64,000 nt of DNA from Methanobacteriota archaeon (GTDB lineage: Archaea; Thermoplasmatota; E2; DHVEG-1): contig CAVYNH010000001.1 in the NCBI GenBank assembly GCA_963769885.1, positions 13,234-77,233 of the forward strand, read 5' to 3'. The position numbers and the translations under genes were made by a program. Positions 31 to 46,651 of this stretch are shown piece by piece (the stretch's first letter is position 1; the number at the start of each line of letters is the position of its first letter). Under the pieces are notes generated by a model, which saw only the letters and a program-made list of their open reading frames with translations, was not told where the DNA came from and made no database searches.

Positions 31-35
31 GATGG

Positions 36-545
36 TTATGTTATAACTGATATGATGAAAGGACAGACATCCTTAATTATCCAATGAACTGTTGTTATAA
101 TCATTAATGTTAACCAGATTATGGTAAATGTTAATGGTACAAAAAATGATACAATTAAACCAGAACTTATTTTTGTTAAGAATTTTCTACAACCTAAAGC
201 TTCATCAATTTCGTTATATGTTCCTTTCTTAAAATTTTTATTTGAAGTAAAACAACCATTACAATCTGTGAATATTTTAGTCTCTAATTTTCTTCCTTCA
301 TTTTCTGCTATAAGAATATGGGCATATTTTCTATGCAAAATAAAGAACCAGAAAATACTTATTATAAAACCAGTAAAACAAACTATTACTGCTGCAATAT
401 TTATTTTATTTATTATTTGAGAATAGCCTGCGAATAATAAGGATATGACAATAATATAAAAATGAAATGAGTCCCAATATCCTTTATCCCATCTTTCCCA
501 AATTGAAATAATTGAATTGTATTGTCTTATTTCTTTTTCACACAT
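36..545 (-). CDS. Small multi-pass membrane protein, RipA/Rip1-like
   Basis: 169 aa with 3 hydrophobic helices. The pattern Y...W..F..V.S.L / G.IIS..W......Y........R.LE..I resembles RipA-family octameric membrane proteins (recalled similarity, not searched). Confidence 0.55.
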   Translation of the reverse strand: MCEKEIRQYNSIISIWERWDKGYWDSFHFYIIVISLLFAGYSQIINKINIAAVIVCFTGFIISIFWFFILHRKYAHILIAENEGRKLETKIFTDCNGCFTSNKNFKKGTYNEIDEALGCRKFLTKISSGLIVSFFVPLTFTIIWLTLMIITTVHWIIKDVCPFIISVIT

Positions 546-742: not shown

Positions 743-2042
743 TTAATCTCCATCAGTGTAGTAACCAAGAATTTCAATGAAATCTTTTTTGGAGGAGTTG
801 ATGAATTTATCCTGTATCCTGGCTATGCCGTTGTCATTTATTGCGTCCCTGACTTCTTTTACTTCTTGGCATCTACTGTAGAACAAATGTTCCTTACTCC
901 ATGCACTCCATAGATGCGGGTCTATCTTGTTAAAAAATGCGCCACCATATACTTCATTAATCTTTGAACATCGGGGCAACCGCATTTTAACGGTTTATTT
1001 TTAATCTTATTTGCTTTTACCAATTCCATTCGTTTTCTGTCATAATATGATCTGAATTTTGAAGATTTACCGCTACCGCCATAATCATTAATGTAACCAT
1101 TTAATGGTTCGATGAAACCGTCAAATCCAGTGGATATACATGGTATGGCATATGCATCCGCATCTATCAAGAAAGTAAATTTATTGTTAAATTCAGCCGC
1201 TTCCTGAATAGACTTGGAAATGTTCCGAGGTTTCTTCTTACATCGGTATCATTCAGAGGGAAGTATTTTATTTTGATGAAAATGATTTTTACGTTCTCAT
1301 ATTCTCCGTCTACGTCCATTAAGAAATCTGTGATTTTTTTAAGTTGATCTAAATTCCGTAATGCTGAATAATTGAGGTTAAAATAGAAAGATGGTTCAAG
1401 ACCAAAGGTATCCGCTATAGTGAAAGCGGATTTTTTATTTACATCAATTGCTATATCTATTAGAGGGGAGTTTTCACCCTCGATAAATGGTACGAATGGT
1501 ACTATTGCATCAGGTTGATATTTATTTTGTTCTCTTACATTCCAGTTGATGACTGTAGTAGTATCTCCTGAGTTATACAGTTGTTGCCACATCTTAGTAT
1601 AATTCGCATATGTTGATTTGGTTAAAAAATCAGAAATTTTTTGTGGGAGTGACGGCAGATTTTTATATTGCGTTCTTTTTTGCTTGTTGTTTAGATAAAC
1701 ATATTCCGTGTTTGGATCAATGAAAACAGGGAGGATGCCTTTTAAGGTTTTAAAATCATAGGAAATCATTGGGATTAAACGTGTTTGTTTAGGATTGAAT
1801 ATTGTTTTCTCTCTGTTCAATGATGATACATTTAATATATCAAAAAATATTCCTTGGAAATAGTCATTTATTTTCTTTTCATCAATAATTATGTCAAGTT
1901 CTTTTGATGTTCTTATCTTAGGGATATAACAGGGTGTTTTGATTGTTTTATTGTTTAAATTGATCGTTGTAATTCTTGCGTTGTTTACTTTCTTTTCAGG
2001 ATAGATCATCACTTGGGTTGATCTTTTTACTTTTTCTTTCAT
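743..2042 (-). pseudogene. TGT (queuine/archaeosine tRNA-ribosyltransferase, DpdA)-fold protein of ~433 aa, split by 2 frameshifts
   Basis: ORFs 1167-2042, 922-1170 and 743-985 join by adding one base near 1217 and one C in the C4 run near 975, restoring CGCPRC. N-terminal ARITTINLNNKTIKTPCYIP resembles the TGT start; the C-terminus has a CxCxxC...H zinc site. The frameshifts may be sequencing errors. Confidence 0.6.
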
Positions 2043-2529
2043 ATGCTATCGACCTCTTTTTTAATATTTTTTAAATGTAATATTAGTTCATCGAGTTGGT
2101 TTGCATTTAACATCAATCCTCCGACAATGGTAAAAATATTGTATTCATCTCTTGTTTTTTCTTGGATATACACAAATTTACCAAAAGGGTTTTCGATCAA
2201 TTGAAAGTTATAATATTTTTCACCTATTTTTACATCTTTTATTAAAGTTGGATGGGCTACTTTTCCATTAGGATAATAGAGGAAATTTCTTTGACTAAAC
2301 TGTCGCCTATACAACTCTCTGATCGCTGTAAGGTAATCTAAAGTTGAGATGCGGTTCTGCGATCAATCCCTGCAACATCAGATACTTGAGGTAAACTAAT
2401 TCCTTGTGGATTATCTTTAACAACTTTTAATATGATTGAACAAGCAAATCTTTTTCTATCTTCGGGAGACATTTTTTTTAATTCCTCTTTTGAAAATCCG
2501 ATTTGACTTCTATTTATTGCGTCATCCAT
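2039..2529 (-). pseudogene. Winged-helix protein fused to a PUR/PC4-like domain (~163 aa), one frameshift near 2343
   Basis: MDDAINR...GISLPQVSDVAGIDRRTASQ continues as LDYLTAIRELYRR... after a +1 correction. The C-terminal KYYNFQLIENPFGKFVYIQE...LMLNANQLDELI resembles a PUR repeat. The stop overlaps the next start (ATGA). Confidence 0.55.
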
Positions 2530-2688
2530 TGTTTTTCTCCTTGTAATTTTATATACAACATTAAGATGCACATACCTTGTGCATAGTTATGTTGTACAGT
2601 TGATGTTGCACATAAACGGTTATTATATATATAAAGATAACTGATAGCTTTATATACTGACAATGTATTATAAAACTTGGCGAAATAT

Positions 2689-3847
2689 ATGGGCAACAAA
2701 ATAGATATTAAAGAAATGGTTAACGCAGAAAAGCTAGAGGCATGACACTTTTAGAACAAGGAATAGAACCAACCGAGATTAATCCGCATACGTGGATAGT
2801 GCCAAGTCAGACAGGAAATGGAACATATCAAGTTGATGTCCAGATGCGGTATTGGCATTGTACATGTCCAGATTTTGAACTAAAAGTATTGTAAACACAT
2901 CAATGCGGTTAAGATATGGAAGAACCTGAAAGAGAAATTTGAACAAATACATCTCAAAGTGAAACAGAAAATTACGTTAACAGATATTGATGTTGATTGC
3001 TGTAAGTTTTGTCATTCAACAGAAGTGACAAAATATGGGATGAAAAATAGTAAACAAGTCTATTTCTGTAAGACCTGTAATCGAAGATTTGTCAATAATG
3101 TTGACTTCGAGAATATGAAATATAACCCTAAGATAATCGCATTAACGCTTGATCTGTATTTCAAAGGAATAAGTCTCAGGAAAATAAGCCAACATCTAAA
3201 ACAATTCTATGAACTGAATATAAGCCATAAATCAGTTTACAACTGGATAGAAAAATATGTAGGGATAATGAATGAATACGTCAATGAAATACAACCTGAT
3301 ATTGGGGAAGTATGGCATACTGACGAAATGATGATTAAAATAGATGGCTCATGGAGACCTCTGGAATGTCATGGACGAACGTACACGGTTTCAACTCGCT
3401 TCTGTGGTATCAAAAGAACGATATGTTAAAGATGCACGTATGGTATTTCAGAAGGCAAAAAAGAACTGCGGTGGACGCAAGCCGAAGTTCATGGTTACCG
3501 ATGGTCTACCCGCATATAGGGATGCGGTGAACAAGGAGTTTAAAACTAATACTGATGAAACAGAACACCTATGGAATGTGGGGTTACAGCACCATCCAAA
3601 TAACAACCACATTGAAAGATTACATGGGACAATACGGGATCGTGAAAAAACATTTAGAGGGTTAAAGATAGAAAGTACCCCTATTATTGATGGGAACAGG
3701 ATTTACTACAATTTCATAAAACCACATGAAAATCTTGATGGTAAAACTCCGAGTGAGGAATCGGGAATAATCATTGAAGGAAATAATAAATGGCTTACTC
3801 TTATGAAAAAATCAATTCAGTACCAAAAGGCTAAAAATCAGAATTGA
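2689..3847 (+). pseudogene. SWIM zinc finger + zinc ribbon + DDE (IS6/IS240-like) transposase, 3 frameshifts
   Basis: Reassembled reading: SWIM CTCPDF...CKH, CKFC..CKTC ribbon, HTH, WHTDE, VTDG, NNHIERLHGTIRDR, YYNFIKPH. Frameshifts near 2727, 2890 and 3358. Confidence 0.85.
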
Positions 3848-3878
3848 AAAGTTATATAATTCAAATGGAGATTTAAAA

Positions 3879-5321
3879 ATGGAAAACATGCAAATAAAAA
3901 CCGATACTATTTACTGCGGAGATTGCCTTGATGTATTGAGGCGATTTCCAGAAGGATTTGTAAATTTAATTTATCTTGATCCACCATTTTCAAGTGGCAG
4001 GATTTATAATATAGTGTTTGGCACTAATAGCGAAAAAAAAGCCTTTGATGATCGATGGAAAGGTGGTATTCATCATTATATTGAATATATGAGGGAAAGA
4101 CTCGAACTCTGCCATCGTGTTTTGGACAGTAAAGGGTCGATTTATTTACATTGCGATAGTCATGCAAGTCATTATCTCAAAATAGTGATGGATGATATTT
4201 TTGGTTATAATAATTTTAAGAATGAAATAATTTGGAAAAGAAAAGATGCTCAAAGTTTCACCAATAAATATGGAGCTATGCATGATACGATTTTATTTTA
4301 TACAAAATCAAATGAGTACACGTTTAACAAAGCATTAGAAGAGTACATTCCACTTAGCGAAGAAACCGCAGATACTTGGTATAAATATGAAGAAATTGCA
4401 TCGAAAAATATTATTAATCGTCTTGGGAAAAAAATTGAAAAAGGACATGTAAGACGATACAATAAAGGTGATATAAGCGCACCTGGGGATAGGCAAGGTA
4501 CGGCAGCGCATTATAAATGGAACGGAAAATATCCACCAAAGGGGAGACATTGGGAATATACGGTTGAGGTGATGGGGAGATTGGAAAGAGAAAAACGTCT
4601 TGCTTATTCTAAGAATGGAAGGGTTTATGAAAAGCGATATTTAGATGAAACAAAGGGGACACCTCCTCAAGACATTTGGACTGACATTTCTATGTTGCGT
4701 GGAATGGGTAAACATAGTGAAAAAAGTGAATGGATGGAATACCCAACTCAAAAACCAAAACGTTTACTTGAAAGAATAATACGGATTTCCTCAAATGAAA
4801 ATGACATTGTACTTGATCCTTTCTGTGGCTGTGGTACGACTATCGTTGCAGCACATTATTTGAGGAGAAAATGGATTGGTATTGATATTTCACCTACTGC
4901 ATGTAATGTCATAAAAAATCGTATGGGAAATGTAAAAAAAATGGGATTGTTTGTCGTGAAAAACATTCCTATAATTGGACTCCCAAAGACAGAAGATGAT
5001 CTTAGAAAATTGCATCCTTTCGAGTTTGAAAACTGGGTATGTGATGTTCTTTTCGCTATTCAGACGAAGAAAGCAAAAGACATGGGTATTGATGGATATA
5101 CTATTGATGGAACAGTTCTCCAAGCAAAACAAATGGATAAAGTAGGAAGACCCATAGTAGATAATTTTGAGGCATCAATGAAGCGAGCTAAAACCAATAA
5201 AGGCATAGTTATTGCTTTTAGTTTTACTAAAGATGCTTTTGAAGAGGTTGCAAGAATAAAAAGCGAGAATATAGATATTACATTAAGATCAGTAAAAGAA
5301 TTATTAGAAATGGGTTTCTAA
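3879..5321 (+). CDS. N6A/N4C DNA methyltransferase fused to a C-terminal Mrr-like endonuclease domain
   Basis: DPPF catalytic motif, YPTQKP, DPFCGCGTT SAM motif. C-terminus FEFENWV..DMGIDG..LQAKQ..VGRP..GIVIAFSFTKDA is Mrr-like. Confidence 0.9.
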   Translation: MENMQIKTDTIYCGDCLDVLRRFPEGFVNLIYLDPPFSSGRIYNIVFGTNSEKKAFDDRWKGGIHHYIEYMRERLELCHRVLDSKGSIYLHCDSHASHYLKIVMDDIFGYNNFKNEIIWKRKDAQSFTNKYGAMHDTILFYTKSNEYTFNKALEEYIPLSEETADTWYKYEEIASKNIINRLGKKIEKGHVRRYNKGDISAPGDRQGTAAHYKWNGKYPPKGRHWEYTVEVMGRLEREKRLAYSKNGRVYEKRYLDETKGTPPQDIWTDISMLRGMGKHSEKSEWMEYPTQKPKRLLERIIRISSNENDIVLDPFCGCGTTIVAAHYLRRKWIGIDISPTACNVIKNRMGNVKKMGLFVVKNIPIIGLPKTEDDLRKLHPFEFENWVCDVLFAIQTKKAKDMGIDGYTIDGTVLQAKQMDKVGRPIVDNFEASMKRAKTNKGIVIAFSFTKDAFEEVARIKSENIDITLRSVKELLEMGF

Positions 5322-5364
5322 TCTGATACCACTACAGATTTTCCACTACTAAATTTCCACTACA
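5322..5364 (-). repeat. Right terminal inverted repeat (3 x 14-bp unit)
   Basis: CCACTAC cores at 14-bp spacing, ending ...CCACTACA. Confidence 0.85.
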
Positions 5365-5389
5365 GTATTACACAGCACCCTGTTCAGAT

Positions 5390-5450
5390 AGGTTTATATA
5401 GAAGTGTCCATATGCTGGGAATGCTTTTAACCTACTTATAAAGGAGGCAT
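5390..5450 (+). promoter_or_regulatory. Putative TATA box and Shine-Dalgarno of the thermosome gene
   Basis: TTTATATA near 5393; AGGAGG shortly before the ATG at 5459. Confidence 0.45.
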
Positions 5451-5458
5451 AGAACAGT

Positions 5459-7114
5459 ATGATGGCTGGAGGACAGACACCCATAATCATCCTTAAAGAA
5501 GGCACGAAACGCGAAAAAGGCAAAGGCGCCCAACTCAACAACATCATGGCAGCCCGCGCAATCTCCGACGCCGTGAAATCCACGCTCGGACCCAAAGGCA
5601 TGGACAAGATGCTCGTCGACTCCATGGGCGACGTCGTCATCACCAACGACGGCGCCACCATCCTCAAAGAAATCGACGTCGAACACCCCGCCGCAAAAAT
5701 GATCGTCGAAGTCGCCAAAGCCCAAGACGAACAATGCGGCGACGGCACCACCACCGCCGTGATCCTCACCGGAGAACTCCTTCGCAACGCCGGCGAGCTC
5801 ATCGAACAGAACATCCATCCCACCGTCATCACGGGCGGATACCAGAAGGCGGCCATAAAGGCGGTCGAAATCCTCAACAAGATGGCGATCCCGATCAAGC
5901 CCAACGACAAAAAAACGCTGAAGAACATCGCCATGACCTCCATGGCCAGCAAGGGAGCCAGCTCCGCAAAAGCAATCCTCTCCGACGTCGTCGTCGACGC
6001 GGTCACCAGCGTCGCCGAGAAAATCGATGGACGCACCGAAGTCGACATGGACAACATCCAGATCCAGAAGAAACAGGGCGGTAGCATCAACGATACCAAG
6101 ATCATCAAGGGCATCATCCTCGACAAGGAACGCGTCCACGAAGGCATGCCCAAGCACGTCCACAACGCCAAGATCGCCTTGGTCAACGCCGCTTTAGAGA
6201 TTAAGAAGACCGAGGTCGACGCCCGCATCCAGATCCAGGACCCCAGCCAACTCCAGGCCTTCCTCGATGAGGAAGAGACCATGCTGAAGAAGATGGTTGA
6301 AAAAATCAAGAAGAGCGGGGCCAACGTCCTCGTCTGCCAGAAGGGCATCGATGACATCGCCCAGCACTTCCTCGCCAAAGATGGCATCTACGCGGTCCGG
6401 CGCGCCAAGAAATCCGACATGGACAAGCTCGCCAAGGCCACCGGCGCAAAGATCGTCGCCAACCTCGACAACCTCAGCGTCAAGGACCTCGGACAGGCTG
6501 GCGCCGTCGAAGAACAGAAGATCGGCGACGACCGCATGACCTTTGTTGTCGACTGCAAGAACCCCAAGGCCGTCAGCATCCTCATCCGCGGCAGCACCGA
6601 ACACATCGTCGACGAGCTTGACCGCGGCATGCACGACGCCCTCTTCGTCGTCAAAGTCGCCCTCGAGGACGGGAAGATGACCGCCGGCGGCGGCAGCGCA
6701 GCCACCGAGATCGCCATGCAGCTGCGCGAGTACGCCACCACTGTCGGCGGCCGCGAGCAGATGGCGATCGAGGCGTTCGCCAACGCGGTCGAAGTCGTCC
6801 CCAAGACCCTGGCGGAGAACGCGGGTCTTGACCCCATCGATATGATGATCAACGTCCGCCGCGCCCACAAGAAGGGCAACAAGTACGCTGGCATCGACGT
6901 CTTCAACGGCAAGATCACCGACATGATTGACAACAACGTCGTCGAGCCGCTGCGCGTCAGCGTCCAGGAAGTCACGGCATCCACCGAAGCCGCCAACATG
7001 ATCCTGCGCATCGACGACATCATCGCCTCCAAGAGCGGTGGCCCAGCGCCCGGCGGCCCCGGCGGCATGCCAGGCGGCCCCGGCGGTATGGGCGGTGACA
7101 TGGACGAGTACTAA
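5459..7114 (+). CDS. ths: Thermosome (group II chaperonin) subunit
   Basis: TLGPKGMDKML, ITNDGATIL, GDGTTT motifs; GGM-rich tail. Confidence 0.98.
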   Translation: MMAGGQTPIIILKEGTKREKGKGAQLNNIMAARAISDAVKSTLGPKGMDKMLVDSMGDVVITNDGATILKEIDVEHPAAKMIVEVAKAQDEQCGDGTTTAVILTGELLRNAGELIEQNIHPTVITGGYQKAAIKAVEILNKMAIPIKPNDKKTLKNIAMTSMASKGASSAKAILSDVVVDAVTSVAEKIDGRTEVDMDNIQIQKKQGGSINDTKIIKGIILDKERVHEGMPKHVHNAKIALVNAALEIKKTEVDARIQIQDPSQLQAFLDEEETMLKKMVEKIKKSGANVLVCQKGIDDIAQHFLAKDGIYAVRRAKKSDMDKLAKATGAKIVANLDNLSVKDLGQAGAVEEQKIGDDRMTFVVDCKNPKAVSILIRGSTEHIVDELDRGMHDALFVVKVALEDGKMTAGGGSAATEIAMQLREYATTVGGREQMAIEAFANAVEVVPKTLAENAGLDPIDMMINVRRAHKKGNKYAGIDVFNGKITDMIDNNVVEPLRVSVQEVTASTEAANMILRIDDIIASKSGGPAPGGPGGMPGGPGGMGGDMDEY

Positions 7115-26280: not shown

Positions 26281-26462
26281 GTTGATTGTTCTCATACCTT
26301 CCCGATGAGTCAACTATTTTATCTGAATGGTCAAGTTACTTGTTAATTATTTTACTAATTGTTTCCCTTGATAAACACCGTTTTCAGTTGGTTCCGTGTT
26401 GCTGGTGCGTCTAAGGTTTTATTAAGGACGCGATGATTTTTATTCGTAATAGAGGAAGGAAA

Positions 26463-28940
26463 ATGGCTAGAAAACTACTCGCTATTCTTGCATGCCTGCT
26501 CATGATGGGCAGCGTGTTCGTAGGCATCTCTTCCAGTGGAACACCAAAAACCGGCACCCTGACCGTCACCATCCCCGTCGGCCCCTACACCATCGAGCAC
26601 ACCCCGCAGGGCGACGTTATCTCCGTCGAAGGATACGGCCGCCTCCTCACCCCGGGCAAGCCGAGTCTGCCATCCCGCATCTTCTCCATCGCCATCCCAC
26701 CAGGCGCAACGGTCGTAGACGTCAACGCTGATTCGACGGAAACCCCGATCGTAGGAGTCTATACTATACCGCCGGCGACGCTGCCGCGCGTTATCGGGGA
26801 AGAAGACCCCAGCGTCTACGCGCAGGAGCTGCAGACCTACCAGTCCAACTACGCCAGCGTCTACTTCACCAACGCCCCGTACCCATCCACCGTCGCACAA
26901 CTCGTCGGCGCCGGCGGTTACCGGAAATACAACCTCGTCGACATCCGTATCAACCCCATCGCCTACAACCCTATCGAAAGCACCTTGACTCTCCGTTCCT
27001 CGATCTCGGTCACACTCTCGTACACGATTCCTGATGGCGTCCAATTAATGAATGACAACCTTCCAAGCACTGAGCGAACAGCCCAGGACATCATCCTTAA
27101 CTATGCGCAGGCACAATCCTGGTATCCCCCCTCTGCCTCAGCGAGGGGGCTGTATGAATATGTCATCATCACTACGGATGCCCTTGCGTCCTCGGTGAGC
27201 GCCCTCTCCTCGTGGGAAAGCACGAAGGGGAAGAGCGTCAACGTGGTGACAACCTCCTGGATCGACAGCCATTACACCGGTTACAACCTCTCTGCGAAAA
27301 TGCGAGCCTTCCTCCGCGAGAAGTATCCCTCCTCGCAGTGGGGCATCGAGGACGTCTGCCTCATCGGCAGCTACGCGGATGTCCCCATGCGGTCCACTGC
27401 GCAGGATGTCGGCTACGGCGCTACCAAGACCGACTACTACTATGCGGAGCTCTCCCTCCCCGACAGCCAATCCTGGGATATTGACGGGGACCACCGATAC
27501 GGCGAGGACTCCGACCCCATTGATTTCCAGGCAGAGGTCAACGTCGGCCGCATCCCCTGGAACACCCCAAGCGTTGTGGCCGGCATCTGCGAAAAATCGG
27601 TCGCCTATGAGCAGAACACGGAGGAATCCTACAAGAAGAACATCCTCCTGCTCGGCTCCTTCTTCTGGGCGGACACCGACAACGCCGTCCTCATGGAGGC
27701 AAAGGTCAACCAGCCGTGGATGTCGGACTGGACGATGACCCGCTTATACGAGGACGCGCAATCTTCCCACCCCTGTAATTATGACCTGACGTACGCCAAC
27801 GTCGAGTCCGTCTGGTCCCAGGGGACGTACGCCTTCGTCGACTGGGCCGGACACGGCTCAGAGGACGCGGCCTATGAGCTGTATCCCCAGCAGCCGTTCG
27901 TTGACGAGGACACGTTGTTGTCTCTCGATGACGGCTATTCAGCGATCGTCTTCGCCGACGCCTGCAGCAACGCGGATTCTGACTACCTCAACATCGCGCA
28001 GGCGACGCTGAAACAGGGCGGCGTCGGGTTCGTCGGCTCCAACAAGGTCGCCCTCGGATGCCCGGGATGGACCGGGCCCATGAGTGGTTCCAGCCAGTCT
28101 CTCGACTACTTCTTCACCACCTGCTGCACCTCCTGTAACTATACCCAGGGTGCAGCGCTGCAGTACGCCCTCCGCCAGATGTACCAGAACAACCTCTGGG
28201 ACTATCTGCGCTACGAGATGTTCGAATGGGGGGACCTGTACGGGAACCCTGATCTCTCCATGGGACCTGCCATTACGAGCAATCCGCCGAGCACCCCCAC
28301 GCTCGTCGGCCCGGCCCACGGTCTCGTGAACTTCACCTACCAATACTCGAGCTCCTCGTCTGACCCGGACGGCGACCAGATTTATTTCTTGTTCGACTGG
28401 GGCGACGGGTTGAACAGCGGCTGGCTCGGGCCTAAGGCCTCGGGATCGACGGCCACGGCGAATCACACCTGGTCTGCGTTAGGCAACTATACCGTGAGAG
28501 TCAAGGCTAAGGATGTCAACGGGGCAGTGAGCGAATGGTCGGCTCCGATTGCCCTGACTATCGCGAAGAATAGCGCGCCTGAGCGTCCTCTGGTCCATGG
28601 GCCGACGTCCGGTGCACCGCGCAAGCCCTGTTCGTACACCATCCAGACCACTGATATCGACGGGGATAACGTCTCCTATTACGTCGACTGGGGCGATGGC
28701 AGGACAACCGACTGGATCGGGCCCTACGCGTCAGGTGAGCAGATCATCCAGAACCATACCTGGCTGATCCGCGGGCTCTATAACGTGAAGGTGAAGGCCC
28801 GAGACGGCCTGGGCTTTGAGAGCGGCTGGGGGACCGTGCAGGTGCACATGCCGTACTATCCGCCGTTGCTGGCCTTGCTGCACCGGCTGTTCGACCGGTT
28901 CCCGAACGCGTTCCCGGTCCTGCGGCATCTCTTCGGTTAG
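26463..28940 (+). CDS. Secreted gingipain-like C25 cysteine peptidase with propeptide and PKD-like domains
   Basis: PGKPSLP propeptide, YVIIT, VGRIP, AGHG / DACS dyad, LYGNP, DWGDG domains, amphipathic C-terminal tail. Confidence 0.9.
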   Translation: MARKLLAILACLLMMGSVFVGISSSGTPKTGTLTVTIPVGPYTIEHTPQGDVISVEGYGRLLTPGKPSLPSRIFSIAIPPGATVVDVNADSTETPIVGVYTIPPATLPRVIGEEDPSVYAQELQTYQSNYASVYFTNAPYPSTVAQLVGAGGYRKYNLVDIRINPIAYNPIESTLTLRSSISVTLSYTIPDGVQLMNDNLPSTERTAQDIILNYAQAQSWYPPSASARGLYEYVIITTDALASSVSALSSWESTKGKSVNVVTTSWIDSHYTGYNLSAKMRAFLREKYPSSQWGIEDVCLIGSYADVPMRSTAQDVGYGATKTDYYYAELSLPDSQSWDIDGDHRYGEDSDPIDFQAEVNVGRIPWNTPSVVAGICEKSVAYEQNTEESYKKNILLLGSFFWADTDNAVLMEAKVNQPWMSDWTMTRLYEDAQSSHPCNYDLTYANVESVWSQGTYAFVDWAGHGSEDAAYELYPQQPFVDEDTLLSLDDGYSAIVFADACSNADSDYLNIAQATLKQGGVGFVGSNKVALGCPGWTGPMSGSSQSLDYFFTTCCTSCNYTQGAALQYALRQMYQNNLWDYLRYEMFEWGDLYGNPDLSMGPAITSNPPSTPTLVGPAHGLVNFTYQYSSSSSDPDGDQIYFLFDWGDGLNSGWLGPKASGSTATANHTWSALGNYTVRVKAKDVNGAVSEWSAPIALTIAKNSAPERPLVHGPTSGAPRKPCSYTIQTTDIDGDNVSYYVDWGDGRTTDWIGPYASGEQIIQNHTWLIRGLYNVKVKARDGLGFESGWGTVQVHMPYYPPLLALLHRLFDRFPNAFPVLRHLFG

Positions 28941-29362: not shown

Positions 29363-30751
29363 TCATTGACCGCAAGTTCTGCAGCTCAGGTGGGGTACGA
29401 GCTGCACGTCATTAATTGAAAATAAAAACAATTTTGCTGTTGCGATAAATGGTGGGCAATCATCGATAACAATAGTCATTGTGATTTTACCTATCCCAAG
29501 AACAAAACCATTTATACTTTCGGTTGCGTACGGTAAAAAGTTGGGTATCATGCCACTCTTATGTGCTCCAAGAAGTATAAGTCCACCAGTTATTGTGACA
29601 CTCCACGGTACGTTAGTTAAAGTTTTATTGCAAATGTTATAGAAATAAATATGATACCCGGGGCCTCCTGTTATGTTGACATAGAAACAGCATTCGCCGC
29701 AGACAGGAGTGTCTTCTATGATGGGCGCTGAAGAATTCTCATCGCTCGTTGCAAATGCCATATTATGGATTATGGTTCCATTCGCGGTTTCTGGACGGAC
29801 AAGAACTAGCAGCCAGACGCATTTGGTTGAGTTCGCTATGATTGTACCGATATCCCAACGGACCGTACGGCTGCTAATGTTATAGCCTGGCGAGGCGTCT
29901 ATGAAACCCGTTTCATTCGGGAGCTGATCGGTGATAATAACATTATGTTGGGTAGATGCATGTGCGGATGTGCAAATTGTGTAATTAATGTACTCGCACT
30001 GCCATACGCAATCGGTTTCGTTGAGGTTGTCAGTCTTTGTAATTATTAAGTGTGAGCCGCAATCGATGTATGCTTCGATTAGCCAGTTGCGATCCCAAAG
30101 ACTACCGTAACTCTGTAATTCAATCCAGCCTGAGCCTGAACCGTCATTATACCAGTCGCCCTTCCCATCCACGGCCGGTCCTGAATCGAACCCTATTGGG
30201 ATTTCATCGGGATCCTGGACCATCTCCACTGATATCCATAAGTCTTCCGTGCAGTTAAATGGTACCGGCGTCGAAAGGGTTACTACAAACCAGCCTGAAT
30301 CATTAACGAAATAGGGCTGTGAACAGAGGAGCTGGCCTGGTGTAGTAGGAGTTCCCTGCCTATATATTTTGATGTTTCCATGAAGATAATTTGCATCCCA
30401 GTGATAGAACTGAACAGCGGTGAGCCGACAGCCGCAATACGGCGCGAGTTCAGTAGGGGTTAACCGTATCGCTGCTTCCCATGTAGCCCCGCCTGATATT
30501 TTAAATCCAACCCATTTGTTTGTATAGTAGTAATAGAGCCATCCTCCATTACAAATCGCGCAGGGTGTGCCTACTTCATGGTTTGTCTGTTGATGTGTAG
30601 CATCGTGAGTGTTTGTATCGAGTAGAAATGGCGCTGTATTTTCTGACTTTTTAATATCTGCCGTCACCATAAGTGATGATAAGATCAGGAGCAACGCAAT
30701 CATTACAATACCAGCATCTTTCAAAATAGTTTTTCCACCAATAGATTTCAT
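29363..30751 (-). CDS. Secreted Cys-rich beta-sandwich protein (DUF11-like domain plus shared C-terminal domain)
   Basis: Signal peptide; ITKTD..INYTI..NVIITDQLP..WDIGTI. Confidence 0.8.
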   Translation of the reverse strand: MKSIGGKTILKDAGIVMIALLLILSSLMVTADIKKSENTAPFLLDTNTHDATHQQTNHEVGTPCAICNGGWLYYYYTNKWVGFKISGGATWEAAIRLTPTELAPYCGCRLTAVQFYHWDANYLHGNIKIYRQGTPTTPGQLLCSQPYFVNDSGWFVVTLSTPVPFNCTEDLWISVEMVQDPDEIPIGFDSGPAVDGKGDWYNDGSGSGWIELQSYGSLWDRNWLIEAYIDCGSHLIITKTDNLNETDCVWQCEYINYTICTSAHASTQHNVIITDQLPNETGFIDASPGYNISSRTVRWDIGTIIANSTKCVWLLVLVRPETANGTIIHNMAFATSDENSSAPIIEDTPVCGECCFYVNITGGPGYHIYFYNICNKTLTNVPWSVTITGGLILLGAHKSGMIPNFLPYATESINGFVLGIGKITMTIVIDDCPPFIATAKLFLFSINDVQLVPHLSCRTCGQ

Positions 30752-31889: not shown

Positions 31890-32496
31890 CTAAGCGAGAA
31901 ATCCCCATGCTTTAGCGTGGGGATGAATCGCGTCATTTTTCTTCAAAAATTCGTTACCACGTACTGGGTGGACGCGCCCGCAGTCGCGGGCGCTCTGAAG
32001 CACCTGCCCAGGACATCTTGTATGGAACTTATTAGCAGTAGCCATAGCGTAGGCCAGAATATATACCATTTGGAATGGTGCCCGAAATACCGCTACCACA
32101 TGATGCGACGGGAGGAAATCCAAAAACTAATCGAGAATGTGGTGCGTGATGTAGCAGCACGGCATCACATCACCGTCATCGAACTCAGTGTGATGCCGGA
32201 CCACATCCACCTGGTTGCCGGCCTCCCGGCGACCATGAGCGTCTCCTCCGCCCTCCACCTCCTCAAAGGAGCCTCCTCCCATGAGATCTTCCTACGGATT
32301 CCCGCCTTCCGAATGCGGTACCCCCGGGGAGCCTTCTGGAGCCCCGGGAAATTCTTCCGCACCATTGGCGACGCCAATACAGAAACCGTGATCAACTACG
32401 TCAGAAACCATCGATTCCAACAAGCCACCCTTGACGGGTTTCCGGGGACAGCCTAACCCCCGGAAGCCCCGGCATTTATGCCGGGGAGGATGTCAC
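31890..32496 (+). mobile_element. IS200/IS605-family element, tnpA only
   Basis: Subterminal hairpins ATCCCCATGC-TTTA-GCGTGGGGAT (left) and CCCCGGCAT-TT-ATGCCGGGG followed by AGGATGTCAC (right); exact ends approximate. Confidence 0.85.
32022..32456 (+). CDS. tnpA: Y1 HUH transposase TnpA
   Basis: YHLEWCPKYR, DHIHL (HUH), LKGASS, FWSPG, VINYV. Confidence 0.95.
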   Translation: MELISSSHSVGQNIYHLEWCPKYRYHMMRREEIQKLIENVVRDVAARHHITVIELSVMPDHIHLVAGLPATMSVSSALHLLKGASSHEIFLRIPAFRMRYPRGAFWSPGKFFRTIGDANTETVINYVRNHRFQQATLDGFPGTA

Positions 32497-34738: not shown

Positions 34739-35059
34739 ATGGGGGCCTACGGCCTCTTTATTGCGGGGGAAAAGAATATTTTCAACAATCGGCGGTCAGA
34801 AATCGATATTATGCAGGAGATTTTGACGCTGACGCAGAACAGTGCCCGAAAGACGCAGATCCTTTACCAGGTGAACCTGAGCTACACACTACTGAAGAAT
34901 TATCTCATGTTCCTTATAAGCAATGACTTCATCCGTGAGGTGACGGTCGATAACGATCATAATCCCTATTCGGCCTACCAGCTAACTGAAAAGGGTCATC
35001 TTTTTATGAAGGATATTAAAAAAGTGCAGTCTCATTTGAACGGAAAATTTTTTTGGTAA
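34739..35059 (+). CDS. Archaeal winged-helix transcription regulator
   Basis: RRSEIDIMQEIL..ARKTQILYQVNLSY..YL..YQLTEKG. Confidence 0.88.
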   Translation: MGAYGLFIAGEKNIFNNRRSEIDIMQEILTLTQNSARKTQILYQVNLSYTLLKNYLMFLISNDFIREVTVDNDHNPYSAYQLTEKGHLFMKDIKKVQSHLNGKFFW

Positions 35060-35117: not shown

Positions 35118-35285
35118 CTTCTGCTCTTCTTATAACCCCGAGGGTATTTATTTTTTGTAGGCGAATGATAGCAGGAACGTGGTGTTCCGTTTTCGTTCGT
35201 ATATCTGGGGGAGACACTCGGCTTTGCACTCCGCCTTGCATAAGAAATCAAAGCAGAAGTAACTGAAAAGGAGGAAAAGGTAACC

Positions 35286-36485
35286 TTGAAAAAGAACAAG
35301 ATCGGCGTAATGTTTCTAGTGTCAGTCCTAGCGCTATCTGGGATCGGGATCTCTTATGCGGCATTCACAGACACCATCACCGTCCACGGTACAGTCCAGT
35401 GCGCATCCGTGCAATTCAACATACAAGACTTTTCGGGCACCTGGGTCTACAAGGTCTACGGCGGGACAAGCCCACCGCAGCATGAGATCTATGTGGACTA
35501 TGAGCACCTGACTTCGGCGGAGCTTGCCACGATGTTTCCGGGCAGTACGATAGTGTTGGTGTCGTCAGCGACCGGAGCCGCCGGGCCGAGCCCCTACGAT
35601 GCGACGTTCACCTTCGACAAGCTGTTCCCCTGCATCCAATTCAAAGCAGATGTGAAAACGACGATTGGGACGATTCCGGTGAAGATCCAGGCCATCACCC
35701 TGACGCCGCTCAACGGCGCTGAATGGATACGGCCGTTGATCAGCAACAACGAGATTAGGGTAGAGCTGAAGATGTTGCGGAATGGCCAGTGGAGTACAGT
35801 CGGCGTCGGCGCGCAGGTACACCCAACCGATATCATCGAGATCATCGTATGGGTGCATATCCCCCAGAACAACGCGTACCAGGGGTTAACGGGCTCGCTG
35901 CAGGTCACCGTCAGCGTCCAGCAGTGGAACGACCTGTGCGGTCAGACCACCGGACCAAAAGAGTTGAATCTCCCGACGGGGACAATAAACGCAGTCTACT
36001 ACCATTACGGACCCTCTAGCTACTGGCAGACGGTCCTCAGCAACGTCGGGACCGGGTATACCGTCCATGATGGGTCCTACATCGGCTGGTGCAACGACGA
36101 AGACACGTACATCGTCCCAGGCAACTTGTACAACGTAAGGCTGTTTTCAAGCTATGACCAATCGTTCTTCTTGGCTCATCCCAACTGGAACGGGAATTAT
36201 TGGTATAGCTGGCCATGCGTCAACTACCTCATAAACCACAAGATACCAGTGACGAGTCAGCTGCAGAAGGATCAGATCCAGTTCGCGATCTGGTATTTCA
36301 TCGACCACGGCTACACCGGCACTGATCCTATCGTCTGGGGCATGATCAACGCTGCGCTCGCCAACGGGAAGTACTTCGTCCCGCAGACCGGTCAAAATAT
36401 GGCCGTGCTCGTCGTTGGATATCCCTTCGATGGAGTGCAGCATGGATACGTAGTTCAGCACACCTTCATCGAAGTCGACCCATAA
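35286..36485 (+). CDS. SipW-class signal peptide TasA/CalY-like protein with a putative C-terminal thioester domain
   Basis: GISYA/AFTDT; N-terminal half paralogous to 36612-37283; C-terminal GWC(269)ND, IQ(332)FAIW, VQ(391)HTFIE. Confidence 0.75.
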   Translation: MKKNKIGVMFLVSVLALSGIGISYAAFTDTITVHGTVQCASVQFNIQDFSGTWVYKVYGGTSPPQHEIYVDYEHLTSAELATMFPGSTIVLVSSATGAAGPSPYDATFTFDKLFPCIQFKADVKTTIGTIPVKIQAITLTPLNGAEWIRPLISNNEIRVELKMLRNGQWSTVGVGAQVHPTDIIEIIVWVHIPQNNAYQGLTGSLQVTVSVQQWNDLCGQTTGPKELNLPTGTINAVYYHYGPSSYWQTVLSNVGTGYTVHDGSYIGWCNDEDTYIVPGNLYNVRLFSSYDQSFFLAHPNWNGNYWYSWPCVNYLINHKIPVTSQLQKDQIQFAIWYFIDHGYTGTDPIVWGMINAALANGKYFVPQTGQNMAVLVVGYPFDGVQHGYVVQHTFIEVDP

Positions 36486-36611
36486 ATAAATAAGAATACC
36501 TGAGTCCGGGGGTCCCGGACTTGGCAGTTCAAACGGCGGAGACGCTCAGCCTTGAACTCCGCCTGAAAAAAGAAATCAGGGCAGAGAAACCATAAAGGAG
36601 GAAAAAAAGAC

Positions 36612-37283
36612 ATGAAAAACAAACTCGGCGTGATATTCGCCGTATCTGTAATGGCGCTAGCTGGTATCGGCATTAGCTACGCAGGGTTCACGGACACCAT
36701 AACCGTGCATGGAAGCGTAACGACCGCGACTGTGACCCATACTATTGGTTCCACCTTCTCTGGGACATGGGTCTACAAAGTCTATGGAACGGGAGCACCC
36801 ACCCATGAAATCTACGTTGACCACACAGGCCTTGGGATAACAGAAGTTCAGCGACTTTATCCTACTGCCATTGTTCTAGGCCCGATTGCGAGTGCGACAG
36901 CCGCACCCGGGACAGGCTATGATGTTGAACTCACATGGACCAACATCTTCCCCTGCATCGACTTCTGCTGTGACTTCGACTTCACGTACACCGGAACCAT
37001 ACCCGTGAAAGTAAACAGCATGACGATGACCTATGACCCTAACCCCGGTGGAACGCCATCTGGCTGGATCGATCAGTACCTGACCTATACATTAACTACG
37101 GGTACTGGCACAACACCGGTTCCGATAGGTCTTGGCTCCCAGCTCCATCCTGGTGATGTAGTGCACTGTGTATTCTGCATCCACTTGCCGCAACTCGACA
37201 GTTTGCAGGGCAAGTGCGCCGTTGGACATGCATCACTGCAACTAGTCCAGTGGAACGAGTTCCCATACACGCCAATACCATAA
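36612..37283 (+). CDS. SipW-class signal peptide TasA/CalY-like filament subunit
   Basis: GISYA/GFTDT cleavage motif, NIFPC, YTGTIPVKV, QLHPGD, LVQWN. Confidence 0.78.
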   Translation: MKNKLGVIFAVSVMALAGIGISYAGFTDTITVHGSVTTATVTHTIGSTFSGTWVYKVYGTGAPTHEIYVDHTGLGITEVQRLYPTAIVLGPIASATAAPGTGYDVELTWTNIFPCIDFCCDFDFTYTGTIPVKVNSMTMTYDPNPGGTPSGWIDQYLTYTLTTGTGTTPVPIGLGSQLHPGDVVHCVFCIHLPQLDSLQGKCAVGHASLQLVQWNEFPYTPIP

Positions 37284-42190: not shown

Positions 42191-43375
42191 ATGTGGTACC
42201 TCATCCTTGGACTTCTCGGGCTCCTCTACCTGGCATCCAACACCATCCTCCCTAGCCAAGGCACCATCGGCACCTACCTCCTCCAACCCCTCCTCTGGAT
42301 AGGCCTCGCCATCCTCACCTTACTCGTCGCCAAAAACGAAGACCTCAACATCCTCAAGTTCAAACGTGTCTCCCACTGGTACTTCGGCAACTCACCCCTC
42401 CAGGCCGGCCTCCTCATCGGCGGCCTCCAAGTCACCCTCCTCATCCTCGTCGGCGTCTTCACCGGCTTCGGAAAAAGCCCCAACAGCTTCACCCCCACCC
42501 CCCTCATCCTCAACCTCGTCTTCGTCGCCTCCCTCCTCACCGGCACCGAGATCACCCGCGCCTACCTCATAAAACGCGGCACGCAAACCCGCAGGCACAC
42601 CACCCTCGTCCTCATCGCCGCCACCGTCATCTACGCCGCCTTCCAACTCACCATCACCCAGATCCTCACCCTCACCACAAACACCCCCATCATCCTCCTC
42701 GAATTCCTCGGAAAAACCGTCATCACCGCCATCGCCATCAACCTCCTCGCCTCCTACCTCTCCTACATGGGCGGCGCCACCGCCTCCCTCAGCTACATCG
42801 GCATCCTCACCGCCTTCGACTGGTTCTCCCCAATCCTCCCCAACCCCCACTGGACCATCCTCGCCCTCATCGGCACCATCATCCCCGCCATCGGCTACTC
42901 CCTCATCCAAAACTCCATCCGAGAACCAGGCATCAAAAAACACCGGAAACCACACCGAACCACCGCCGACGGCTATGGCTGGACCGCCGTCACCGTCTTC
43001 AGCGTCCTCATCGTCTTCTTCTCCTTCGGATACCTCGGCGTCAAACCCACCGTCATCTACAGCGGCAGCATGCAACCAGAACTCCAAGTCGGCGACCTCG
43101 CCATCATCCAAAAAACCGACCCCGCCACCCTCAAAAATGGAGACATCATCCAATTCAACAACGACAACATGACCCTTATCCACCGCGTCATCAACATCAC
43201 CTCACAACAAGGCCAGACACTTTATACCACCAAAGGCGATGCCAATAAAGACCCCGACATCCCCCCCATTAAAGAAGACCAAATCATCGGCAAATCCATC
43301 TTCACCATCCCCAAGATAGGATGGATACAAATCCTCGTCAAAGACCTCGCCAGAAAAGCAGGCATCAAAGTCTAA
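42191..43375 (+). CDS. sipW: Signal peptidase I of SipW type fused to a multi-pass membrane domain
   Basis: SGSMQP..GDL, IHRV, TKGDAN..PD, IPKIGW; ~7 N-terminal TM helices. Confidence 0.88.
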   Translation: MWYLILGLLGLLYLASNTILPSQGTIGTYLLQPLLWIGLAILTLLVAKNEDLNILKFKRVSHWYFGNSPLQAGLLIGGLQVTLLILVGVFTGFGKSPNSFTPTPLILNLVFVASLLTGTEITRAYLIKRGTQTRRHTTLVLIAATVIYAAFQLTITQILTLTTNTPIILLEFLGKTVITAIAINLLASYLSYMGGATASLSYIGILTAFDWFSPILPNPHWTILALIGTIIPAIGYSLIQNSIREPGIKKHRKPHRTTADGYGWTAVTVFSVLIVFFSFGYLGVKPTVIYSGSMQPELQVGDLAIIQKTDPATLKNGDIIQFNNDNMTLIHRVINITSQQGQTLYTTKGDANKDPDIPPIKEDQIIGKSIFTIPKIGWIQILVKDLARKAGIKV

Positions 43376-43392
43376 AAAAAAGAGAATGCACC

Positions 43393-44643
43393 ATGAGTAG
43401 AGCCAAAAACAGAAAAGCCAGGACCCTCCCCAGAAAAACCATCCCACGGACACCGCGGTACATCATCATTGCCGTAATCAGTGTCATCCTCATCTACGCC
43501 CTCACCAGCACCTACCTCGCCTACCAAACACCCACGACACAACGACAGACCCAAACCATCGTCCATTACTCAAACAACGGCCGCTTCACCTACCTCATCT
43601 ACCTCCACAACAACACTATCTACAATAAAACCGTCCTCTACCCAGAAGAAGGCATCATCTTCACCCAACTCCTGGACCACATCAACGCCACGTTCACCTA
43701 CACCTACGAAATCAACACCACCTCATCCATCAGCGGCAACTGCAGCATCCTAGGCATCATCCAAACCAACCTGTGGAGCAAAACCTTTTCCCTCCGCCCC
43801 CAAACCCCCTTCAGCGCCATGGGACAGTACGCCACCGCGACCGTGGACTTCCCCATCGACTACGCGTACTTCGAACAAGTCTTAGAAGAAATCAATACAG
43901 AGACCGGCGTCCCGGCCCAAAACCCCGTCCTCATCATCCAAAGCCATGTGACTATCACCGCGCATACAAACCAAGGGGCCGTCTTCACATCCTTCTTCCC
44001 CGCCTTCAACCTGACCCTCGGACAGCGAACCATCGATGTTTCAAAGAATCTGATCTCCAGCGACCCGGGATCATTAACAAAAACAATAACGATAGAGACC
44101 CCTAATATCCAATCCCAGAGAAACAACTGGTCCATCATCAGCATTATCACCCTCCTCGGGCTGGCCTCAGTTGTACTATTCACCGCGAGTCCTGTCGAAA
44201 CAAAAACAAATACAGTGACCGAGGTCAAAAAAATCAAGAAGAAATATAACGAGTGGATTGTCGAAGCAGACGAACATCCGGATGCTGCGGAAGCCCGCAT
44301 CGTTTCCATTAAGTCAATCCAGGATCTCGCTAAAATCGGAGAGGAACTCGGGAAGCCCATCATCCATTATTCCCCAAAAAACGAGAACGACAAGAACAAT
44401 ACCTTCTATGTCATCGATGAAACAGTCTTTTATGAATACGTGCTCAAGCCAGCGGAGAGCAGCAAAAAAAGCACCACCTGCCCACAATGTGGGGCAACCA
44501 TCGACTATGAGGAAAATGCAGGACGAAAAGTAACCTTACGATGCCCGAACTGTGGAAGTAAGGCAGTCGCTGACGTATCTGAGGAAAAACCCTGGTCAAA
44601 TCTGTTAGCTCGAATAAAAAAACGAAGACTCAATGGCAAATAA
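43393..44643 (+). CDS. DUF5305-like membrane protein with a C-terminal zinc ribbon
   Basis: Two TMs, KYNEWIVE..SIQDLAKIGEELGKPIIH..FYVID..YEY, CPQC..CPNC; follows sipW. Confidence 0.7.
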   Translation: MSRAKNRKARTLPRKTIPRTPRYIIIAVISVILIYALTSTYLAYQTPTTQRQTQTIVHYSNNGRFTYLIYLHNNTIYNKTVLYPEEGIIFTQLLDHINATFTYTYEINTTSSISGNCSILGIIQTNLWSKTFSLRPQTPFSAMGQYATATVDFPIDYAYFEQVLEEINTETGVPAQNPVLIIQSHVTITAHTNQGAVFTSFFPAFNLTLGQRTIDVSKNLISSDPGSLTKTITIETPNIQSQRNNWSIISIITLLGLASVVLFTASPVETKTNTVTEVKKIKKKYNEWIVEADEHPDAAEARIVSIKSIQDLAKIGEELGKPIIHYSPKNENDKNNTFYVIDETVFYEYVLKPAESSKKSTTCPQCGATIDYEENAGRKVTLRCPNCGSKAVADVSEEKPWSNLLARIKKRRLNGK

Positions 44644-45391: not shown

Positions 45392-46651
45392 TTATGGGGT
45401 GTTTACGATGAGGAGGAACCCGAGGAGGAGGCCGGTGGTGGTGACGGTCTGTTTGCCGGCGTTCTTCGCGGTGGTGTGGACTTGGATTTGGACTTTGCCA
45501 AGGGCGAGGAGCGGGATCCGCTGCGTCTCGGCCTGTCCTGGCGTCAGGGTGTCGATGGTGTCGGAGAAGCTGAGGTTGATGTCGTTTTTCCGGCCGCCGG
45601 TGATCGTGATCGTCCATTTCAGCTGCGTCAGGTTCGTTGTGGCTGGGTTGTAGAGTCGGACGCGTAGGCCGAGGGGTCCGCCGTGGATTTCGATGCCGGT
45701 TTTCGGGGGGTAGACGACGTAGGCGGCGGCATAGCCGACCTTGCAGCAGCCGTATTCGATGTACATGAAGCCGTTCTCGCCCCAGTAGGGTCCCCAGGAG
45801 TTTTTCAGGATCCAGCAGCCGTGCTCGCCGAGGGTGTCGTCCCAGCCGACCAGGGTGACCGCATGGTTGATGTTCGCGGGGGAATTGTTGTTGAAGACTC
45901 CGCCGGTGTAGGCGCCGAAGGCTTCGTTGACGGCGACGCCGCTGGAGACGGGCCCGTAGGTGTAGATTGCGTTCTTTATTGCCTCGGTGCTGGGCACTCC
46001 TTGGTTGACGCCGACGTATTTCCATGAGTCGAGGTGGTACGGGTGATGGTAGGGGCCGTCGCAGGGTGCGTCCTCGGCGACGTACGGGAAGCCCTGTTCA
46101 AGGACCGCGCCTGAGCCGTCGAATGTGTCAGTACGCCATTGGTGGTAGTCGTGGGCGTACCAGCCGCCGTTGCATCCCCAGTGGTTCTGGTTGCAGCTGA
46201 CGAGCCATTGTTCGGAGAGGTCGACTTCGACGTGGTCGTGGATGAGGATCGCGCTTTCCATGGGTCCGACGGTGCCGAAGGCCCAGCAGCTGCCGCAGCC
46301 GTCTTGGTCCTTGACGCTGGAGACGCCGTTGTGGTCCCGCCAGTCCCATCGGTCCGGGAGGGTGGTGGTGGGCAGGCAGGGGTCGAAGCTGGCGTTGACC
46401 CACCAGTCTGCTGGCTCGACGAGTCCGCAGAGCTGTGAGAATGGGCGCTGGGTCGCGGGGTTCTCTCCGACCGTGAACGTCCAGCCGTTTTCTGTTGCGT
46501 GTTGCTGCATGGTGGCGATGTCTGCGGGGGTCAGCCAGGGCGTGGTGCCGGTCGTCGTGAGGGAGTCAAGCGTGCATCCGCAGGAGCCGAGGACGGTTGG
46601 TGTGATGAGGGTAAGGAGGCATAACAGGCAGGGTATCCAGGGGGTTTTCAT
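45392..46651 (-). CDS. Secreted papain-family (C1A) cysteine peptidase
   Basis: QDGCGSCWAF, NHAV, WILKNSWG..WGENG; shared C-terminal domain. Confidence 0.95.
   Translation of the reverse strand: MKTPWIPCLLCLLTLITPTVLGSCGCTLDSLTTTGTTPWLTPADIATMQQHATENGWTFTVGENPATQRPFSQLCGLVEPADWWVNASFDPCLPTTTLPDRWDWRDHNGVSSVKDQDGCGSCWAFGTVGPMESAILIHDHVEVDLSEQWLVSCNQNHWGCNGGWYAHDYHQWRTDTFDGSGAVLEQGFPYVAEDAPCDGPYHHPYHLDSWKYVGVNQGVPSTEAIKNAIYTYGPVSSGVAVNEAFGAYTGGVFNNNSPANINHAVTLVGWDDTLGEHGCWILKNSWGPYWGENGFMYIEYGCCKVGYAAAYVVYPPKTGIEIHGGPLGLRVRLYNPATTNLTQLKWTITITGGRKNDINLSFSDTIDTLTPGQAETQRIPLLALGKVQIQVHTTAKNAGKQTVTTTGLLLGFLLIVNTP

Follow-up and report, generated by a model that had tools for sequence, protein, structure and literature searches.

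Thioester domains (TEDs) were stated in 2015, in the study that defined them, to occur exclusively in Gram-positive bacteria, and as late as April 2026 descriptions of TED adhesins still confined them to Gram-positive organisms and to host tissue as their target (PMC4450167; bioRxiv 10.64898/2026.02.05.703941). The TED fold combines a beta-barrel with a helical subdomain. In the defining study only the Cys and the Gln were invariant, and all twelve TEDs tested showed a 17-Da loss. A physiological target is known for only two TEDs, so any function assigned by analogy rests on a thin basis. By fold, the closest described relatives of the domain reported here are the class I TEDs (Pfam PF08341; CpTIE 5a0g, Cpa 4c0z/2xi9, SfbI 5a0l, PnTIE 5a0n, FNE 5dcq; PMC4450167, PMC6194298). 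In TIE proteins, which are sortase-anchored TED adhesins, the TED is N-terminal and is followed by an isopeptide/ester stalk and a C-terminal LPXTG.

The closest fibre system is the AbpX-type locus (Pyrodictium abyssi AbpX, 9sj2/9rhp; bioRxiv 10.64898/2026.01.04.697558), a branch of the TasA superfamily for which a ten-helix peptidase, a DUF5305 protein, and minor and tip subunits have been described. Further comparison is offered by the tapA-sipW-tasA system of Bacillus subtilis (TasA 5of1/8aur) and by the archaeal AbpA bundling pili (PMC9245690), which share with the present locus the type of signal peptide and donor-strand assembly, the latter as predicted here; the presence of TasA homologues in Thermoplasmatota had been noted previously. 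No covalent adhesin has been described on TasA or AbpA fibres. The best functional analogy is the pilus-tip adhesin Cpa of Streptococcus pyogenes, where an accessory fibre subunit likewise displays a TED. Cpa, however, is attached to an unrelated pilus through isopeptide bonds made by sortase, whereas the fibre proposed here is a non-covalent donor-strand polymer. Finally, thioesters of another kind had already been predicted in archaea, namely those of alpha-2-macroglobulin/TEP homologues with a CxEQ motif (PMC8416519). Like the protein described below, these are secreted archaeal proteins with a predicted Cys-Gln thioester, but in an unrelated all-helical domain where the Cys and the Gln lie three residues apart.

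Here we describe a gene encoding an AbpX/TasA-superfamily fibre domain fused to a putative TED in a 64,000-nucleotide stretch of DNA (the window) from an uncultured Thermoplasmata archaeon of the DHVEG-1 lineage.

Architecture of the fusion protein

The gene encodes 399 residues, starts with TTG and is preceded by a GGAGG site (Table 1). Its signal peptide, inferred from sequence alone, is assigned by likeness to TasA/AbpX, and the SipW-signal model TIGR04088 scores 15.7 bits against it, below the cut-off of 19. An earlier note, made without database searches, had proposed a TasA-like minor fibre subunit bearing an extra C-terminal thioester domain. The extra domain is confirmed by comparison with the downstream paralog, which lacks it, and the three motifs that the note had singled out (G267-W-C269-N-D, I331-Q332-F-A-I-W336-Y-F and V390-Q391-H-T-F-I-E) all lie exactly where it had placed them in the open reading frame. 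Its domain start at 35967 was slightly late: 35967-36485 comprises the final 173 codons of the frame, while the TED begins around residue 225, 9 nucleotides earlier. The fusion protein has no stalk, anchor or LPXTG, and no sortase was found; contrary to the arrangement in TIE proteins, the TED is C-terminal and ends the protein.

The host is taken to be an archaeon because RNA polymerase subunit D is encoded in the window. One contig from an independent wetland sequencing run covers the entire fusion gene, with 390 of 399 residues identical and the four key residues kept; since this contig spans the whole gene with a near-identical protein, the fusion is not an assembly artefact. The organism is free-living judging from its read sources, wetland and freshwater sediment.

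Table 1. Features of the fusion gene and its locus, with positions in the window
Feature	Position	Strand	Description and basis
Winged-helix protein (PF14947, Sso10a family)	34739..35059	+	Likely regulator; same position in L034 and L036
Conserved leader, ~75 nt	35206..35285	+	Directly upstream of the fusion gene
Fusion gene	35286..36485	+	399 aa; signal peptide, AbpX/TasA-superfamily fibre domain and putative thioester domain
Signal peptide, residues 1-25	35286..35360	+	Predicted cleavage after S-Y-A motif; conserved in alignment
Predicted N-terminal donor strand, residues 26-43	35361..35414	+	Model and motif conservation
AbpX/TasA-superfamily beta-sandwich domain, residues 26-217	35361..35936	+	Profile matches, model and Foldseek
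Predicted class-I-like thioester domain (TED), residues 225-399, ~20.0 kDa	35958..36482	+	Model, fold searches and weak HMM matches of relatives
Cys269, predicted thioester cysteine	36090-36092 (codon)	+	Conservation; register with CpTIE Cys138
Gln332-x-x-Ile-Trp336, central-helix TQxxPhiW-type motif	36279..36293	+	Ile/Val replacing Thr; codons Gln332 36279-36281 and Trp336 36291-36293
Gln391, predicted thioester glutamine	36456..36458	+	Conservation; register with three solved TEDs
Second leader copy	36532..36611	+	Upstream of the solo subunit
Solo fibre subunit, 223 aa	36612..37283	+	Paralog of residues 1-217, 44% identical
Gingipain-like C25 peptidase, 1520 aa	37475..42037	+	Fn3/PKD stalk and C-terminal membrane helix
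Multi-membrane signal peptidase I, archaeal/SipW-like	42191..43375	+	TIGR02228 above cut-off
DUF5305 protein	43321..44643	+	Proposed signal peptidase accessory in AbpX loci; PF17231 above cut-off

TEDs are the only clear matches of the C-terminal domain among solved structures

The C-terminal domain was modelled by AlphaFold2 with a pLDDT of 96.5 and a pTM of 0.92, and a Foldseek search of the PDB with this model returned TED-bearing chains at all of ranks 1-30 (best E 5.9e-5, TM up to 0.54). Comparison by VIA-align, an independent aligner, with 48,161 solved chains gave only eight matches at Z>=8, all of them bacterial TEDs (Z 8.2-11.2, the next match reaching 2.8), the best being 5a0g (Z 11.2, rmsd 3.4, 146 aligned). 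Among predicted structures, the nearest neighbours are clusters from Bathyarchaeota (TM 0.82-0.83), a cluster from Bacteroidota (0.77) and a PEP-CTERM cluster (0.67), and Bacillota TEDs, SfbI included, match at TM 0.65-0.69. TEDs are the only clear matches, with identity to the solved examples of only 8-16% and a TM of about 0.5. It is therefore very likely that the domain has the TED fold, as predicted by the model. The fold is predicted to be class-I-like, because 122 residues separate the Cys from the Gln (129-153 in class I TEDs) and there is no sandwich insert. Shared with class I TEDs are the fold itself, the order and register of the Cys strand, the QxxxW helix and the late Gln strand, and the lack of the class II beta-sandwich insert; the archaeal host, the low identity, scores below the TED HMM cut-offs and a W-C in place of [YFL]-C set the domain apart.

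Single-sequence searches with the domain gave no match in Pfam, NCBIfam or PDB sequences, the cut-offs of PF08341, TIGR03934 and NF012162 were not reached, and an HMM search of the genome for PF08341 gave no match. When 146 relatives were scanned singly, three separate TED HMMs led their weak matches (PF08341 in 21, TIGR03934 in 11 and NF012162 in 6; best E 0.001). The relatives themselves are numerous, with 681 at E<=1e-3 among 50%-identity representatives, and come from Thermoplasmatota, Bathyarchaeota and diderm bacteria, where more than one kind of display scaffold carries them; none was found among viral contigs. We regard the domain as belonging to a homologous subfamily outside current HMMs, a large family below the Pfam threshold rather than a Pfam member. 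A feature-based search returned clusters with 11-13% TED members; recognition was low, and the result serves as a lead only. A profile-search match to UL130 in PDB sequences (E 0.12, chance level) received no support from the fold search and was set aside, and an alpha-2-macroglobulin-type thioester was excluded, the CxEQ motif being absent and the fold different.

Conservation and predicted pairing of Cys269 and Gln391

Of the 178 domains in the alignment, 176 (99%) have Cys269, 173 (97%) Gln391, 172 Gln332 and 171 Trp336, and both Cys and Gln are present in 171 of the 174 domains with letters at both columns. The motifs are not chance occurrences, given the 681 relatives and the conservation of the key residues. 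The residue preceding the Cys is Trp in 172 of 178, the family reading W-C-V-D and the query W-C-N-D against a published motif of [YFL]-C-hydrophobic-polar; of the likeness to a [YF]C motif drawn in the earlier note, an aromatic residue before the Cys is kept, but as Trp and not Tyr, Phe or Leu, and the exact motif is not. The central-helix motif, located in helix H101-115 of the model, reads [IV]QxAIW in the family, with the Thr of TQxxPhiW replaced. These deviations speak against the assignment, if not strongly, the defining study having found only the Cys and the Gln to be invariant.

As for register, residues 8..175 of the model were matched to 101..275 of CpTIE, where Cys138 and Gln267 form the bond, and in both the Cys lies 37 residues after the aligned start and the Gln 8 before the aligned end. 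The corresponding distance of the Gln is 8 in Cpa and PnTIE and 9 in SfbI, and Gln391 is in register with Gln267, Gln575 (Cpa) and Gln247 of three solved TEDs. This comparison is of range ends and not a residue alignment, and is supportive only. Co-variation was computed over 211 sequences (effective 189) and 12,561 pairs, with five column shuffles as reference; shuffling also removes relatedness. Pair 270-394 ranks 4 of 12,561 (z 7.0, shuffles reaching at most 6.4); lower down come 270-392 at rank 33, 271-392 at rank 77 and 272-389, and together these pairs fit an antiparallel arrangement of the Cys and Gln strands. The proximity of Cys269 and Gln391 is an indirect inference from the range-end register and from the co-variation of neighbouring positions.

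A thioester probably forms between the two residues, the bond being inferred from characterised TEDs without mass or amine-reactivity data. A disulphide role for Cys269 was considered and rejected for want of a conserved partner; C311, the domain's other cysteine, recurs in 18 of 178. A rival explanation is that the TED fold carries no stable reactive thioester and that the protein is a non-covalent adhesin or glycan binder, in which the Cys and the Gln would be kept for structure or for other chemistry. In its favour are the low identity, the changed surroundings of the motifs, insertions rich in aromatic residues close to the Gln strand (with a co-variation coupling 301-392), and one relative with Ser in place of the Cys. 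Against it, no functional pair is better conserved than Cys and Gln, which is true of all TEDs, every one of the twelve TEDs of the defining study lost 17 Da, and no second conserved Cys is available for a disulphide. We consider this alternative unlikely.

The N-terminal domain resembles AbpX/TasA fibre subunits

A profile built from 74 relatives of the N-terminal domain matched AbpX first (9sj2, E 8.4e-6; 9rhp, E 4e-4) and TasA next (E 0.16-0.24), while PF12389 matched neither the query nor any of the 74 relatives. The domain is modelled as a beta-sandwich (pLDDT 90.8) whose first 18 mature residues are free in the monomer; the top Foldseek hit is the TasA fibre 8aur, which is weak (E 4.9e-3), and a VIA fold search gave no match at Z>=8, a result not decisive alone. 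The putative donor strand has an aromatic residue at mature position 2 and an acidic one at position 4, as in AbpX. In a model of the complex between the fusion and the solo subunit, these 18 N-terminal residues insert between two strands of the partner, with a score of 0.80 against 0.00 for the best control, agreement of at least 95% of contacts between runs and a partner pLDDT of at least 87. Such a mark is reached by 58 of 80 solved pairs and by 2 of 110 mismatched pairs; the pass may reflect memory of solved TasA/AbpX fibres, so the prediction shows likeness and not binding.

Fusions conserve the residues of the donor strand and of the groove to the same degree as solo subunits do. Because both are kept, fusions may lie along the shaft: a position there or at an end is possible, as inferred from the kept groove. 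An obligate tip position is not supported, the acceptor groove residues being kept. We think it probable that the fusion is built into a fibre, on prediction and without assembly data. The TasA-like nature of the subunit proposed in the earlier note is thus upheld by the AbpX profile match, the TasA Foldseek match and the complex model, but its status as a minor subunit remains an inference without stoichiometry data. SipW dependence held only in part, the closest system being an AbpX-type locus and TIGR04088 falling below its cut-off.

Genomic context

With AbpX loci the present locus shares the profile match, the aromatic-2/acidic-4 donor strand, a TIGR02228 peptidase, DUF5305, a regulator and accessory subunits, and it differs by a cargo fused to a subunit and a C25 peptidase inside the locus. 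AbpX subunits, whose assembly depends on calcium, have about 15% Asp/Glu and a pI of about 4, whereas the fibre domain of the fusion has 7.8% and a pI of 5.2 and the solo subunit a pI of 4.85; as strong acidity is not met, we classify the locus as AbpX-like and not AbpX. Unlike tapA-sipW-tasA, it shows no PF12389 match, a sub-cut-off TIGR04088 score, no TapA, and a peptidase with many membrane helices (8 hydrophobic segments in a crude scan by simple hydropathy). The text and supplement of the AbpX preprint contain no mention of a thioester and no Thermoplasmatota locus (0 occurrences). Gene order is kept in two related loci (L034 and L036) and rearranged in a third (L032), all three of which also contain the C25 peptidase gene. 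No dedicated anchor subunit is evident.

The fusion and solo genes are each preceded by a conserved leader that ends in the ribosome site, and these two copies are the only ones in the 2.09-Mb genome. Elsewhere the leader occurs in L028, L032 (3 copies), L034 and L036 (3 copies), before fibre-subunit genes. A 6-pair stem is predicted in it, without compensatory change, and a comparison with Rfam gave no match; it may be a regulator-binding or RNA-processing element. A scan for promoters and terminators, using a bacterial consensus, remained at chance level. The solo subunit is inferred to be the major subunit, which seems likely. In a close strain it is identical at only 154 of 223 residues, against 390 of 399 for the fusion. 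Blocks 36772-36919 and 37023-37230 of the solo gene are replaced there by diverged sequence between flanks ~97% identical. It could be a hypervariable, perhaps recombining, major pilin; such variability would be expected of an exposed major pilin.

Several secreted protease-like genes lie near the locus, including a second gingipain-like frame recognised by eye (26433-28940) and a papain-family C1 peptidase (45392-46651) in addition to the C25 peptidase. The DHVEG-1/MBG-D lineage is known for extracellular gingipain- and papain-like proteases, in keeping with the number of such genes that the window contains. The reverse strand at 29363-30751 encodes a secreted protein that contains a DUF11/CLIPPER domain; members of this family form isopeptide bonds within the molecule. 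Upstream of the locus, a lower-GC stretch contains a frame reading by eye like an IS200/IS605 TnpA transposase (31917-32456), and window positions 1-6000 have a GC content of 30-41% against ~55% in the genome, possibly marking foreign DNA.

Distribution of the TED and its scaffolds

Fusions of the TED to an AbpX-like domain number about 35 distinct proteins. Most often the TED heads a repeat stalk, and it also occurs on type IV pilin, PEP-CTERM proteins, lipoproteins and PF12389 subunits, while the fibre domain carries vWA-CLIPPER, PKD and lamin-tail as cargo besides the TED. The TED behaves as an adhesive head found on varied scaffolds, and the fibre domain as one with varied cargo. In a class survey of 197 genomes, the TED was found in 41, the fibre domain in 18 and the fusion in 5, so that the fusion is optional, only 5 of the 18 genomes with the fibre domain carrying it; in a phylum sample, 35 of 401 genomes have the TED. 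A tree of 211 domains places most AbpX-like fusions in two well-supported clades, with others scattered, and requires 12 changes against at least 31 in shuffles; being midpoint-rooted and based on about 160 columns, it does not tell where the fusions arose or which way any transfer went.

Individual cases illustrate this range. The present genome has a second TED of this family (contig C6, ~486900-490400, reverse strand) at the N-terminus of a ~1160-residue protein, where it is combined with 11 InlB B-repeats and an Ig domain; such a layout, here in an archaeon, is the classic one of fibrillar adhesins. A TED ends a bacterial type IV pilin with N-methyl motif and Ig domain in a pilus cluster (L038:8001-9398). 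At L039:3980-11731, four PF12389 (TasA/camelysin-type) genes form an operon with a signal peptidase, and one subunit ends in a TED, which we regard as an independent TasA-TED fusion. At L032:3978-14406, six fibre-domain genes stand in a row (cargo none, vWA-CLIPPER, TED twice, PKD) next to a C25 peptidase and a signal peptidase, forming a modular display locus.

Two further proteins, one at L042:8001-8711 (P0029) and P0027, consist of a signal peptide, a donor strand and a TED without a fibre body and are encoded away from any peptidase operon. They are possible pure cap adhesins acting in trans, and without a fibre body could only cap an end. A tight clade of fusions (P0022-26, P0028, P0058), including L037:10001-11077 and L040:10001-11149, lies outside peptidase operons, beside glycan/phosphonate genes, thymidylate synthase, dUTPase, a Cas4-like gene and a resolvase, or beside a Zot-like ATPase, TnpB and a resolvase. 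These contexts probably represent mobile elements or viruses, though none of the genes was confirmed as a virion hallmark.

Two rivals can be weighed here. In the first, the TED is reactive but the fusion lies outside any fibre, as a secreted or surface monomer or dimer whose N-terminal domain is an export or docking module. For it speak the absence so far of an observed fibre in the lineage, the close fusions in mobile-looking contexts outside peptidase operons (L037, L040) and the weak fold search of the N-terminal domain. Against it speak the conservation of donor strand and groove in fusions to the degree seen in solo subunits, the predicted strand exchange with the neighbouring solo subunit (with the caveat of memory of solved fibres), the relatives reduced to donor strand and TED (P0027, P0029), which make sense only as fibre caps, and the leader common to the fusion and solo genes. 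In the second rival the thioester is real but cross-links the organism's own matrix (fibre to fibre, S-layer or same-species neighbour) rather than a foreign target. This would suit the role of TasA/AbpX fibres as biofilm matrix proteins, the lack of an evident dedicated anchor subunit in the locus, the free-living habit indicated by the wetland and freshwater sediment reads, and the action of a TED adhesin in cell-to-cell contact during Bacillus conjugation (PMC8092201). However, the same TED tops long repeat stalks, is displayed by type IV pilins, lipoproteins and PEP-CTERM proteins, and on the fibre domain its place can be taken by other adhesin-type modules (vWA-CLIPPER, PKD, lamin-tail), which fits outward binding. 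Both rivals appear unlikely to us.

Discussion

The explanation that, taken as a whole, we hold to be more likely than not is that the fusion serves a surface fibre of the AbpX/TasA type as an accessory subunit carrying a reactive TED. After export of the fusion, the signal peptidase encoded in the locus would remove its signal peptide, an inferred step, and donor-strand exchange is then predicted to bring the freed N-terminal strand into the solo subunit's groove, making the fusion part of the fibre. The TED would fold, and Cys269 and Gln391 would join as a thioester with loss of ammonia, as inferred from characterised TEDs; a lysine or other amine of the target would then attack the thioester and become bonded to Gln391, tethering fibre and cell covalently. 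By analogy with SfbI and Cpa, this tethering would probably be reversible. The target itself has not been identified; an environmental or microbial protein is favoured because no animal host is in evidence. Covalent attachment is the likely task of the TED, by analogy and without reactivity data. The covalent-adhesin interpretation offered in the earlier note is thus supported by fold, conservation, strand pairing and the link to a fibre, with the bond and its reactivity inferred.

A bolder reading, which we consider unlikely, is that of a capture-and-digest apparatus in protein-eating sediment archaea, in which TEDs would bond detrital protein and hold it near the stalked, membrane-anchored gingipain-like protease of the same conserved locus. 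If it were true, covalent adhesion would be the feeding device of a free-living cell and not a host-binding trait.

In the literature searched, mostly open-access, we found no report of the TED fold in archaea or on TasA-family fibres. The earlier note had held such a combination to be undescribed in archaea, which stands for this TED fold, macroglobulin-type archaeal thioesters having already been predicted. Both parts, TED and TasA-superfamily fibre, are known; their union and the archaeal host are new as far as this literature goes. If the favoured explanation is true, no thioester cargo on a fibre of the TasA superfamily, and no reactive archaeal adhesin with this fold, would to our knowledge have preceded it. 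A self-assembling fibre with a built-in amine-reactive head would be of interest as a material, and the 20-kDa domain should be easy to express. More broadly, TEDs away from animals raise the question of what their binding partners are there, and with a divergent, compact TED subfamily that Pfam does not recognise, present in archaea and in diderm bacteria from the environment, covalent adhesion would become a strategy that crosses domains of life.
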